From contig OZ253470.1 of assembly GCA_965261735.1 (NCBI GenBank), positions 2,944,001 through 3,008,000 on the forward strand: a stretch of DNA of 64,000 bases, written 5' to 3'. Both the position numbers and the translations under genes were made by a program. The first letter of the stretch is position 1, and every line of letters starts with the position of its first letter. Below are positions 14,770-18,075 of this stretch, piece by piece. The notes under the pieces are model-generated. The model made no database searches. It was not told the DNA's origin and was given only the letters and a program-made list of their open reading frames with translations. Source of the DNA: Alphaproteobacteria bacterium (GTDB lineage Bacteria > Pseudomonadota > Alphaproteobacteria > SHVV01).

Positions 14770-15796
14770 CCTGCTCATCCGTGACACTCCGCTTGGGGAG
14801 GCGCATGTTCTCAATATGTTCTCTCTACGGGAGTCACGGTCATGAGGTACAAGGTTGCATCGCGCGTGCGTGGTCTGAGCGACGAGGCGTTTCGGGAGGC
14901 CTTCGGCACCAAGGAGCAGTGCCGCGCGGCGCTGGTCCGGCTGCGCTGGCCGGGCGGCTTCGTCTGCCCCTGCTGCGGCCATCGCGGGCATTGCGTGCTG
15001 GCGGGCCGGGGGCTCTATCGATGCAACCGGTGCAAGAAGCAGACATCGCCCACGGCGGGCACGATCTTCCACGCGACCAAGCTGCCGCTGACACTCTGGT
15101 TCGCCGCCATCCACCTGATCGTGACGGCGAAGAACGGCCTCTCGTCGGTGGAACTCGGCCGCCGTCTCGGGGTCAAGCAGCCGACGGCCTGGGCCGTGAA
15201 GCACAAGATCATGGCGGTGGATGGCGCGGCGCGAGGGGGGGACGCGGCTTACGGGGCGGGTGGAGATGGACGACGCCTATCTCGGCGGAGTGCGCTCCGG
15301 CGGCAAGCGGGGCCGCGGCGCGGCGGGCAAGACGCCCTTCGTGGCGGCGGTCTCGACCAGTCCCGAGGGGCGTCCGCGCAAGGTGAAGCTGGCGCCGGTC
15401 AAGGGCTTCCGCAAGCGCGAGATTGCGCGCGGTGCCAAGCACTGGCTGGCCCCCGGCGCGGCGGTTGTGACGGACGGCCTGGGCTGCTGGAGCGCACTCG
15501 ACGAGGCCGCCTGCAGCCACCAGGCGATCCGCACCGGCTCGGGACGCAAGGCGGCCCGCGTGGCGTCATTCAAATGGGTCAATACGGCGCTCGGCAACAT
15601 CAAGTGCGCGGTCACCGGGACCTATCGCAAGCTCGGCCCCGATCACACCGGGCGCTACCTCGCCAGTTTCGCCTGGCGCTACAACCGCCGTTATCAACTC
15701 CAGACGATGATCCCGCGCTTCGTCCATAGCGCCGCCCGAACCGACCCGATGCCCTATCGCCTCCTCATCGCAGGATGAATGTCACGGATAAGCAGG
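14770..15796 (+). mobile_element. IS1595-family element type A, copy 1 (frameshifted transposase 14842-15778)
   Basis: IRs CCTGCT(C/T)ATCCGTGACA; zinc finger CPCC...CNRC, VEMDDAY, VTDGL; +1 frameshift near 15220; no TSD. Confidence 0.9.
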
Positions 15797-15803
15797 TTTC
15801 TAT

Positions 15804-16202
15804 TTAGCCCTCGCCGCCTCCAAAGCCACCGCCTCCGATCCCGTCGTAGCTGCCGCCCACGCCCCCGCCATGCGCGATCAGCGCGTAATCGCTCGCCGCG
15901 GCCCCTAGGACAAAGCCGCTCAACAGGGTCATGTCGGCGGCGTGCACCATGCGGCGCTGGCGCAAGATTCGTTCGGCGCGTTCGACCTCTTTCGGATCGT
16001 CGGACAGTTTCGCCGCTTCCGCCGCCGCCAACTCATGGAGCAGCCGCTGGTACTTTCGCCATAGCCGATGAATGCGCCAGCCAGTGAAGACAATGACAGC
16101 CGCAATAGCCAGCCCGAGCACCAACTGACCGGCGTCGAGCCGCACAATCAAAATCCAAGCCAGAATTGTTAACACTGCCCCATCGAGCAAACGACGTAGC
16201 AT
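15804..16202 (-). CDS. Hypothetical small membrane protein with Gly-rich tail
   Basis: Two TM segments; GAGGAGG RBS before ATG. Confidence 0.55.
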   Translation of the reverse strand: MLRRLLDGAVLTILAWILIVRLDAGQLVLGLAIAAVIVFTGWRIHRLWRKYQRLLHELAAAEAAKLSDDPKEVERAERILRQRRMVHAADMTLLSGFVLGAAASDYALIAHGGGVGGSYDGIGGGGFGGGEG

Positions 16203-16299
16203 GCATCCCTCCTCGCGTTGGTTGCTCTATCCAACATTTTCCAGACAGCCTCCAATTTGCAGCCAAACGTAGGCAAATCCTGCCACCGATGGAAAAGTT

Positions 16300-16918
16300 T
16301 TTCCCTTCGGCCCTCCGGCAGTGGTGTTAAGCCAACAACCGCAGGTCTGGACGGACGCTTTACCGATCACCTGCAACGCCGCCCGATATGACCGAAGGCT
16401 GTCCGTGACGATCGAAGCCGGCCGGCCATAGCGTTTCATCGCGCGCTTCGGAAACTTAAGCGCAGCCCTGCGATCCCGCTGTTTCGTGGCAAAAACCTCG
16501 AGCACTTCTCCAAAAGGTCAGAAAGACGGGGTCGGAAAAACCACTACGAGACGCAGGGCTGTGAAGCATACCGCCGCACCGATTTGGATCCCATCCACGA
16601 ACACCATATGCGCCCGCGGCGCATGAATGCCGCTTCACAGAGGCCGGACATACGACAGTACCTGACCGCATGTCACAAGTTATTTAAATTCCATCTTGCA
16701 CTGCAGGGGGCATCCACATACGTCTCGTGGCAGACGTCGACACCGCGCTCGAACAGAAGATCTTCGACCTGTCGCAGCGGCAACGGGTAGCGGACATACA
16801 TCATCACCGCGAGGCGGATGACCTCTGGCGAACTGTTGAAATAGCGGAAGGGATTTCGCATCTGGCAAAACTATGGATGCCCCATCTGCTGCATCAATCC
16901 ATTTTTTCTGACAACACC
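16300..16918 (-). mobile_element. IS6-family remnant interrupted by an IS1111 end
   Basis: IR GGTGTTGTCAG; MRNPFRYFNSSPEVIRLAVMMYVRYPL...ERGVDVCHET | GEVLEVFATK.RD..AALKF...IVTDSLRSY. Confidence 0.85.
16511..16720 (+). ncRNA. Orphan IS1111-type right end with putative bridge/seek RNA (transposase deleted)
   Basis: Co-linear with 150-361 (TCGG..AAACC, AGGCCGGA, CTTGCA, GGGGGC.TCCA. + 3 nt); guide segments match the junction and flank. Confidence 0.8.
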
Positions 16919-17050
16919 CTGCTGGTTGCTGCACGCGCCGTATCGCCCCCCAGCCGGCGCTTGCCGGCCTCCAGGAACTCTTTGGACCAGCTGCAATAAA
17001 GGATCTCTGACGGGGGACAGTCGGAAAAGGGGATTGGCGACAACCGCGTT

Positions 17051-18075
17051 CCTGCTTATCCGTGACACTCCGCCTTAGGACGCGTATATTCTCAATATGT
17101 TCCGCACGCGGAGGTCACGGCTATGGGGTTCAAGGTTGCATCGCGCGTGCGTGGTTTGACCGACGAAGTGTTTCGCGAGGCCTTCGGCACCGAGGAGCAG
17201 TGCCGCGCGGCGCTGGTCCGGCTGCGCTGGCCGGACGGGTTTGTCTGCCCCTCCTGCGACCATCGCGGGCATTGTCTGCTGGCCGGCCGGGGTCTCTATC
17301 AATGCAACCGCTGCAAGACGCAGACATCGCCCACAGCGGGCACGATCTGCCACGCGACCAAGCTGTCGCTGAAGATCTGGTTCGCAGCCATCCATCTGGT
17401 CGTGACGTCGAAGAACGGCATCTCGTCGGTGGAACTCGGCCGCCGTCTCGGGGTCAAACAGCCGACGGCCTGGACTGTGAAGCACAAGATCATGGCGGTA
17501 ATGGCCCGGCGCGAGGAGGAGACGCCGCTCTCGGGGTGGGTGGAGATGGACGACGCCTATCTCGGCGGGGTGCGCTCCGGCGGCAAGCGGGGCCGTGGCG
17601 CGGCGGGCAAGACGCCCTTCGTGGCGGCGGTCTCGACCAGTCCCGAGGGGCGTCCGCGCAAGGCGAAGCTGGCCCCGGTCAGGGGCTTCCGCAAGCGCGA
17701 GATCGCACGCGGTGCCGCGCGCTGGCTGGCCCCAGGGTCGGCGGTTGTGACGGACGGCCTCGGCTGCTGGAGCGTGCTCGGCGAGGGCACGTGCAGCCAC
17801 CAGGCGATCCGTACCGGCTCAGGACGCAAGGCGGCCCGCATGGCGCCATTCAAATGGGTCAATACGACGCTCGGCAATATCAAGAGCGCGATCACCGGAA
17901 CCTATCGCAAGATCGGCCCCATCATGCCGAGCGCTACCTCGCCAGCTTCGCCTGGCGATACAACCGGCGCTATCAACTCCAGACCATGATCCCGCGCTTC
18001 GTCCATAGCGCCGCACGCACCAAACCCATGCCCTATCGCATCCTCATCGCAGGATGACTGTCGAGGATAAGCAGG
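17051..18075 (+). mobile_element. IS1595-family element type A, copy 2 (transposase 17123-18057, frameshift near 17920)
   Basis: IRs CCTGCTTATCC; 8-bp TSD ACCGCGTT (17043-17050, 18076-18083). Confidence 0.92.

Follow-up and report, generated by a model that had tools for sequence, protein, structure and literature searches.

An IS6-family transposase gene interrupted by the 3′ stub of an IS1111-type element, and the predicted guide RNA that the stub retains

The DNA analyzed here is a stretch of 64,000 nucleotides (nt), referred to throughout as the window, and our subject is a segment of 210 base pairs (bp) within it, at positions 16511-16720. This segment is very probably the dead 3′ stub of an insertion sequence (IS) of the IS1111 type, the guide RNA of which was programmed for one site in the transposase gene of IS6-family elements. 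The identity of the stub, its anatomy, the correspondence between its guides and the flanking DNA, and the use of the same site in other genomes are direct observations. In what follows, G000 is the genome from which the window comes, G002 is a genome of the same family, and labels of the form L002 denote individual loci. The element type represented by the window stub, L002, L035 and L079 is designated as D-type, and its sister type, to which the full-length elements of G002 belong, as C-type.

The stub, its locus and its relatives

The segment separates two pieces of a single transposase gene. The features of the locus are as follows.

16511..16720, plus strand: 3′ remnant of an IS1111-type element (D-type), comprising the downstream non-coding region and the right end (blastn to a full-length relative in G002; a second remnant, 94% identical, in the same genome; breakpoints in DNA contigs)
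16721..16861, minus strand: codons 1-47 (5′ part) of an IS6-family transposase gene, with ...CHET at their end (match to positions 3-43 of the NCBIfam IS6 family transposase profile; uninterrupted relatives 79-93% identical in DNA)
16360..16508, minus strand: internal part of the same IS6 transposase gene (Pfam DDE_Tnp_IS240; NCBIfam IS6 positions 95-147; blastn to L042 and L043)
16721..16722, no strand: core dinucleotide CG, belonging to the IS6 target and to the end of the element alike (full-length relatives have CG at both junctions, with TG instead in one subfamily)

The IS6 gene starts at 16861 on the minus strand and reads MRNPFRYFNSSPEVIRLAVMMYVRYPLPLRQVEDLLFERGVDVCHET down to 16721, where the sequence ...GVDVCHET ends; the internal piece (GEVLEVFATKQRDRRAALKF...) extends leftward from 16508. 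Both pieces score under the whole-protein cut-offs of NCBIfam and Pfam, only pieces of the protein remaining. The 210 bp between them are not IS6 sequence, and in the relatives L042 and L043, which are uninterrupted, blastn shows 162 bp of IS6 in their place. Contigs assembled from three DNA runs leave the window at two points, passing into further IS6 sequence at 16508 and into IS1111-type sequence at 16511, so that IS6 homology ends at 16508 and IS1111 homology starts at 16511. An earlier note on this DNA had described an IS1111-type right end of about 210 bp, devoid of a transposase and lodged in an IS6 transposase gene directly after the codons C-H-E-T; coordinates, breakpoints and relatives all agree with that description, and the breakpoint at 16511 makes its start coordinate exact. 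Among the open reading frames (ORFs) of the window, no IS110-type transposase gene adjoins the 210-bp stretch. The window holds a fragment of a member of the IS1111 family (IS110 superfamily), and not a whole member.

On a full-length reference of 1451 bp, a relative from G002, the window stub corresponds to positions 1240-1451 (blastn). The other two remnants end at the same right terminus, L002 keeping positions 1032-1451 and L035, a stub in G002, keeping 1347-1451. The earlier proposal that a deletion had removed the recombinase gene and left the guide RNA nearly whole is borne out by this retention from position 1240 only and by the loss of 162 bp of IS6.

The note had also called for full-length relatives and their flanks. 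An intact relative, L079, was found at the same IS6 site, and full-length C-type elements were found elsewhere. L079 came from a pattern scan of species-representative genomes and resides in a metagenome-assembled genome (MAG) of the Rhodospirillaceae. Over its full length it shares 92.4% identity with the C-type, and over the right end 92.7% with the window. Its recombinase gene is intact and encodes 355 amino acids (aa), matching positions 1-341 of 343 of the NCBIfam model for IS110 family RNA-guided transposases and the Pfam domains PF01548 and PF02371. The recombinase with DEDD_Tnp_IS110 and Transposase_20 domains is present in the full-length relatives L079 and L025, and no such gene stands beside the window stretch; in both relatives the long non-coding region 3′ of the recombinase stop codon is the homologue of the stub. 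G002 carries five full-length C-type elements of 1465 bp, 88-89% identical over the right-end query, together with two stubs.

Within G000 the stretch has 24 matches: itself, one copy at 94% (L002, with the same IS6 flank as the window), 16 at 76% and six at 69-72%. The 22 distant copies comprise 14 full-length elements of 1379 bp (family A), five of family B, two family A 3′ stubs (655 and 403 bp) and one that did not align. Family B is 81-82% identical to family A, in which a 340-aa IS110-type recombinase lies directly upstream of the region homologous to the stub. The order-level search matched two of eight genomes and the class-level search three of 401 (E up to 1e-30), these being genome samples only; the junction pattern was present in two of the 401 sampled genomes. 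A plasmid collection yielded 83 matching records, all at 60-80% identity and none of D-type. Scanning of metagenomes with a pattern specific for the IS6 guides gave no match, and a general scaffold pattern gave four loci, none targeting IS6, of which three represent one further guide variant and one is a chance match.

As an observation on the resident elements, family A occupies 16 places on G000:C1 (for example, 374884-376262), 14 full-length and two shortened, all outside the window. Its left flank ends in AACCG or AGCCG in 14/14 full-length copies and its right flank starts with TTCG or GTTCG in 8/16; the corresponding guides are GCGTAAC-CG and CG-TTCGGATG.

Guide segments, flanks and the IS6 target

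Two segments of the stub had been flagged as target-binding guides. They are delimited here as follows.

16545..16553, plus strand: right-target guide (5′ strand of the target-binding loop), reverse complement of the core and right flank, with the core complement at 16552-16553 (own-flank match in the same alignment columns)
16574..16581, plus strand: left-target guide (3′ strand of the loop), CCGCAC followed by the core CG, in the same sense as the left half of the target (own left flank in relatives; uninterrupted IS6)

The segment 16544-16553 is CTACGAGACG, and the flank at 16721-16730 is CGTCTCGTGG. The reported complementarity of the two with one G:U pair was reproduced, the segment being the reverse complement of the flank at 9/10 positions with the tenth forming a would-be U:G pair. 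A match of at least 9/10 to the flank anywhere in the 210 bp arises in 327 of 20,000 mononucleotide shuffles, and is by itself only modestly unlikely. The weight of the match derives from its position, because in 12 of 15 related elements the right flank is matched by these very columns of the alignment. The alignment comprises 15 right ends: the window, L002, L079, the C-type, L077, L078, families A and B, an element of a further genome (G001) and six plasmid elements from rhizobial, rhodobacterial and sphingomonad sources. Scored against its own core and right flank, the right guide agrees at 7-8 of 8 positions in those 12 elements, and not one of 204 mismatched guide-flank pairings reaches 7. 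The far-end U:G pair, TA in the RNA against TG in the flank, recurs in several unrelated elements, and this position more likely belongs to the scaffold than to the guide. The left guide agrees with its own left flank and core at 5-7 of 7 positions in all seven elements with a located left end, L079 giving 6/7. We note separately that in L082, a related right end on pSymB of Sinorhizobium meliloti Rm41, the right-guide columns match the flank at only 4/8, which may reflect an off-target insertion, decay or misalignment.

Taken together, the guides in the window spell CCGCAC-CG-TCTCGT, which on the IS6 strand encodes (H/Y)ETVR; the right half of this sequence is the actual flank. The left half of the target was deleted from the window, so that uninterrupted IS6 genes provide an independent test of what the guide predicts. 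Twenty IS6 loci were fetched from G000 and its relatives, 15 of which are uninterrupted at the insertion position, and HETVR is read in 15/15 of these. L043 and L050 have CCGCAC/CGTCTCGT (the slash marks the junction here and below), exactly as the left guide predicts; eight others have CCGCAC/GG..., and L042 and L068 have CCGTAC/CG.... The earlier reading of the joined guides as Y-E-T-V-R-R thus stands for (H/Y)ETVR and fails at the sixth codon, as uninterrupted IS6 genes continue after HETVR with Y, F, L or N.

The full-length element L079 interrupts its IS6 gene exactly where the window stub does, and with the same orientation. Its surroundings are ...CAGTACCGCAC-TG/element/GG-TCTCGTAAGAGAC, which read ...VSYET/VRYW; the left flank ends ...CCGCAC-TG and the right flank begins GG-TCTCGTAA. 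The left guide of L079 is identical to that of the window, and its right guide differs at the core complement. When the flanks are rejoined, the IS6 reading is continuous (...SYET/VRYW) with only the core shared, and there is no target duplication. The remnants L002 (G000) and L035 (G002) occupy the same IS6 position. All four D-type copies, from three genomes and including one of full length, are therefore at an identical IS6 position and in an identical orientation, which upholds the view that this lineage inserts at this site.

The guides of L002 differ from those of the window, TATGAGACG replacing TACGAGACG and CCTCAC(-CG) replacing CCGCAC. The flank of L002 differs correspondingly (TCTCAT versus TCTCGT), and an IS6 variant, L055, has TCTCAC/CGTCTCAT. 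The pattern is suggestive of covariation between guide and target, as judged from two copies only. With regard to the core, its first base differs between the two junctions in L079 (TG at the left and GG at the right) and in L077 (CG at the left and GG at the right). The comparison points to a requirement for agreement of donor and target at the second core base, G, and not at the first.

Other interruptions of IS6 genes were seen in G000. At G000:C1:1989050-1989360, a 5′ part of IS6 with an internal deletion, still reading ...VRYW, is followed by the left end (ATGGTATGGACGCC) of another IS1111-type family, with a reversed left-end-like sequence on its other side. At G000:C1:4087204 and 4469905, 5′ parts of IS6 break off to the right of the D-type insertion site, at distances of 8 and 18 bp, and their left flanks are unrelated.

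Fold of the RNA and ends of the element

The guide segments were placed within a predicted RNA and the ends of the element by means of the same alignment. The features are listed in order of position.

16516..16667, plus strand: predicted seekRNA/bridge RNA core, closed by stem P1, 16516-16520 with 16663-16667 (RNAalifold on the 15 relatives; hand-written structure)
16556..16572, plus strand: predicted hairpin closing the target-binding loop (folds in 15/15 relatives; compensatory stems, for example GAGCU/AGCUC, GUGCU/AGCAC and GCAC/GUGC)
16601..16607, plus strand: right-donor guide ACACCAT, complementary to the L079 left end ATGGTGT (L079 left end; alignment)
16616..16633, plus strand: predicted hairpin in the donor-binding half, GCGGCG...UGCCGC (folds in 15/15 relatives; GCGAC/GUCGC covariation in two)
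16648..16654, plus strand: left-donor guide ACATACG, equal to the right end of the element plus the core (sequence; tracks the right end in relatives)
16696..16701, plus strand: TTGCAC, putative -35 half of a circle-junction promoter, pointing away from the RNA gene (CTTGCA conserved in the 15-sequence alignment)
16706..16720, plus strand: right subterminal inverted repeat GGGGGCATCC with a 5-nt terminal extension, ACATA (inverted repeat with GGACGCCCCC at the L079 left end)

RNAalifold and the hand-written structure agree on stem P1, a long P2, a short P3, a hairpin P4, and a GGCC/GGCC stem around the second hairpin. Over 27 pairs, 96% of the alignment cells are paired, compared to 19-49% when the partners are slid by 1-3 columns, and six pairs carry compensatory changes on both sides among the 15 relatives. 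Folded as a single sequence, 16511-16722 is no more stable than its shuffles (z-score 0.31), the structure being visible only by way of the alignment. P3 and P4 are separated by an internal loop, the two strands of which are the flagged guide segments. The earlier note had held that stem positions for these segments would speak against guidance; they lie in the loop, except for the first two C of 16571-16581 (CCGCCGCACCG), which are part of the hairpin stem. The guide that this segment was said to contain, ending in the CG core, accordingly survives as 16574-16581 and loses those two bases. Placement in the loop and the matches to the elements' own flanks (12/15 elements for the right guide, with none of 204 mismatched pairings reaching 7, and 7/7 for the left guide) concur in identifying both segments as target-binding guides. 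By sequence and by analogy with known systems, the stub carries a predicted seekRNA/bridge-RNA gene of the IS1111 type.

The motif ACATACG, which the earlier note had equated with the element's own right end plus core, indeed occurs at 16648-16654 and again at 16716-16722. The left-donor guide follows the right end across families, with ACACACG accompanying ...ACACACG and ACAGATG accompanying ...ACAGATG. In L079 the left end consists of ATGGTGT followed by GGACGCCCCC, and the right end of GGGGGCGTCC followed by ACATA; in the right repeat of the window copy, position 16712 has a private G-to-A change. The left end that had been predicted from the donor guide, CG-T-ATGGTGTGGAT, was nearly right, the actual left end in L079 being (T/C)G-ATGGTGTGGAC. 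The extra T is due to a conserved bulge of one A between the right-donor guide and the core complement, found in families A, B, C and D.

The sequence TTGCAC is located 17 nt before TA-CG-(AT). It is likely the -35 half of a promoter, the other half of which, TACGAT, would form only in the circle from the joined ends TA, CG and AT. ISEc11 offers a precedent for a promoter that is split between the ends and formed in the circle (PMC11187229).

Expression of the RNA, its binding by the recombinase, and the order of events are inferred. The live element, of about 1.46 kb as in L079, consists of a DEDD recombinase gene followed by a non-coding region of about 150-210 nt that would fold into two guide-bearing halves. 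In the target half, 16545-16553 would pair with the top strand just right of the crossover and 16574-16581 with the bottom strand just left of it, both strands specifying CCGCAC-CG-TCTCGT, the (H/Y)ETVR stretch on the IS6 strand. The donor half would specify the element's own joined ends through 16601-16607 and 16648-16654. The element would have entered an IS6 copy at its CG core, in antisense orientation relative to the transposase gene, and one later deletion would have removed the left 1.24 kb of the element, with its left end and recombinase gene, along with 162 bp of IS6.

State of the stub, competing explanations and sister elements

The window copy is most likely inert. Three of its 27 conserved pairs are broken, at 16544, 16592 and 16611, where G is found in 13-14 of the 15 sequences; the five nearest relatives have no broken pair. 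No promoter-like site was found in 15700-16900, where shuffles average 0.7. For ISEc11 no internal promoter was found, only the one formed in the circle (PMC11187229), and since the stub lacks a left end, it would form no circle and have no circle promoter. No D- or C-type recombinase gene was found in G000 other than two N-terminal fragments, which are of the sister C-type and lie inside an IS1380-like gene, and the recombinases resident in G000 are 62% identical to that of L079. No D-type left-end stub beside an IS6 left half was found in G000. Matches to the stretch among the Logan contigs of one metatranscriptome run (share 0.07) amounted to six short contigs of 90-99% identity, four of which overlap the stretch in part and none of which extends across the RNA; this speaks neither for nor against expression.

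The earlier note had raised the possibility that the orphan RNA acts in trans, a proposal for which we found no support. In its fullest form the RNA would still be in use as a read-through transcript, loaded onto a resident related recombinase of family A or B and guiding it to IS6, such that the stub would be a guide-only parasite or an IS6 silencer; we consider this improbable. The predicted RNA is retained whole, with the breakpoint 5 nt before stem P1, its scaffold is 76% identical to that of family A with the same fold, and each end of family A departs from the orphan donor guides at about one position. No pair is broken in the second orphan, L002, and non-coding regions supplied in trans support the transposition of ISEc11 and IS621 (PMC11187229; PMC11208160). 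Against these points stand the three broken pairs, the missing promoter and circle and the distance of the resident recombinases already described; in addition, none of the 16 family A and five family B copies has an IS6 flank, and none of the eight places matched in G000 showed an intact IS6 copy of this subgroup. The stub is best described as the ordinary decay of an unusual element.

The shared layout of the remnants could alternatively mean that the right-end stub and the IS6 5′ end together form a small module that is mobile or has been copied repeatedly, as all three remnants (window, L002 and L035) are 3′ stubs joined to a 5′ part of IS6. We regard this as quite unlikely. The left breakpoints fall at three different reference positions (1240, 1032 and 1347), divergence is greater in the IS6 parts than in the stubs (89% versus 94% identity), and guides and flanks differ between copies in a matched way. 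In the same genome the sister type has left 5′ stubs and family A has left 3′ stubs, indicating decay from both ends, and G000 at large carries stubs of both ends of several IS1111-type families.

Several points weigh against a guide RNA programmed for this IS6 site. Three of the 15 elements fit their own right flank poorly, with 5, 4 and 6 matches. A search of Rfam 15 over 15800-17400 with E up to 10 returned only four chance-level matches to unrelated families, so that the assignment of the RNA class rests on our own alignment and on analogy with published IS1111 seekRNAs. The IS6 insertions number only four, of which three are remnants in two related genomes, and they may not all be independent. 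Private substitutions are alike in number (seven in the window, five in L002 and eight in L079), and the argument for decay consequently rests on the location of the changes, not their number. Lastly, one C-type guide set occurs in three transposase families with 1-2 mismatches, hence the specificity appears looser than a 14-bp match suggests.

The idea that the complementarity is not guidance at all, being chance or target-derived sequence at a site chosen by the protein or by survival in neutral DNA, is the least credible: a single 9/10 match does occur in 1.6% of shuffles, clade insertions do lie in other insertion sequences, neutral places where insertions survive, and the C-type guide set is indeed found in three gene families, but the guide columns track the flanks across divergent elements with no cross-match, the left guide predicted a sequence that is lacking in the window and was found in uninterrupted IS6, right ends of near identity with different guides have correspondingly different flanks, and RNA guidance has been demonstrated experimentally for this family (PMC11187229).

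The right ends of the sister elements are 87-93% identical to that of the window and carry other guide pairs, with flanks that follow the guides. The locations of these elements are as follows.

L078: IS6 transposase gene, at a second site and in sense orientation, LK/RAMK (Pfam DDE_Tnp_IS240)
L077: ISNCY transposase gene, the flanks meeting at model position 81 (NCBIfam)
C-type, six loci: IS21 transposase gene, FDQM/RAVV (flanks match model positions 3-186 and 195-293, NCBIfam)
C-type, L021/L081 and two 5′ stubs in G000: IS1380-like gene (DDE_Tnp_1_4)
C-type, L025/L074: IS1182-like gene

Pfam gave nothing on the flanks of L077, for which NCBIfam then gave ISNCY. All clade insertions with identified flanks are in transposase genes of other insertion sequences; the left flank of L076 looked like a gene other than a transposase gene. 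This location may reflect either programmed preference or survivorship, such sites being neutral. A bolder proposal holds that the clade consists of RNA-guided hyperparasites of the transposase genes of other IS families (IS6 at two sites, IS21, ISNCY, IS1380-like and IS1182-like), retargeting by the rewriting of two short loop strands, with stubs such as L002 persisting as trans-acting guides that let distant resident recombinases knock out IS6; we hold this to be a long shot.

Two observations concern individual sisters. The guide pair of the C-type (L021, L025 and L027, in G002 and relatives) has a left guide that best fits the IS1380-like site (CTGAAG-CG) and a right guide that best fits the IS21 and IS1182-like sites (CG-CGCCGTG); from its sequence, the set looks like a hybrid or a mismatch-tolerant one. 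In L076, a C/D-type locus on a MAG contig, the right end is split by about 1.5 kb of other DNA, and the flanks of the element come from two different genes, pointing to recombination of one copy with another.

The D-type has much in common with the IS1111 elements ISEc11, ISKpn4, ISPst6 and ISPa11, for which seekRNAs have been described (PMC11187229): a DEDD recombinase with a non-coding region downstream of it, subterminal inverted repeats that leave a 7-nt extension at the left, insertion without duplication of the target, a fixed site and orientation, a top-strand match that lies 5′ of the bottom-strand match in the RNA, and a -35/-10 pair split between the ends. The targets named there include a short sequence for ISEc11, attC sites and REP sequences, whereas the D-type target is IS6 transposase coding sequence; furthermore, the window retains the RNA end only. 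Other IS1111-type elements also prefer a site inside another mobile element, that site being a transposon terminal repeat. The D-type lineage, in contrast, hits a codon stretch inside a transposase gene and disrupts the gene. The bridge RNA of IS621 (PMC11208160) is likewise bispecific, with target- and donor-binding loops that read both strands around a shared core dinucleotide. It is encoded in the left end, upstream of the recombinase, and its core is CT, whereas the RNA described here is in the right end with the core CG (TG in a sister family), and in our fold the donor guides would flank a stem instead of forming a simple second internal loop. Copies of a small-RNA gene associated with the IS110 family and unlinked to a transposase gene are also known as ssr9/MITEPpu9 in Pseudomonas putida (PMC12288879). 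Unlike the orphan in the window, a deletion product with the right end only, ssr9 has both element ends, forms circles and is dispensable for transposition. Recombinase-only elements suggesting a trans-acting RNA are mentioned in a 2026 preprint (10.64898/2026.08.14.744561; see also a second preprint of the same year, 10.64898/2026.10.21.760802). No account of an IS1111-type element with IS6 or any other transposase coding sequence as its target turned up in full-text literature searches, which did not take in ISfinder, most subscription journals or the supplementary target tables of PMC11187229 and PMC11208160.

As for the stub in the window, it is a relic with no evident function. The elements around it form a natural series of near-identical guide-RNA scaffolds with different guide pairs, the genomic target being visible for each, and constitute a ready data set on the natural retargeting of these recombinases and on mismatch tolerance, for example at the first core base in L079 and L077. 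Insertion sequences that land preferentially in conserved coding motifs of the transposases of others would be a case of one mobile element disabling another.

The surroundings of the stub in the window include two diverged copies of a transposase-like gene, at 14842-15778 and 17123-18057. Each copy is split over two frames (ORFs 14842-15729 and 15221-15778 for the first, and 17123-17989 and 17062-18057 for the second), and we take their reading to resemble transposases of the IS1595 type. Directly left of the IS6 remnant, an ORF of 132 aa on the minus strand (15804-16202) has a hydrophobic N-terminus and a glycine-rich C-terminus.

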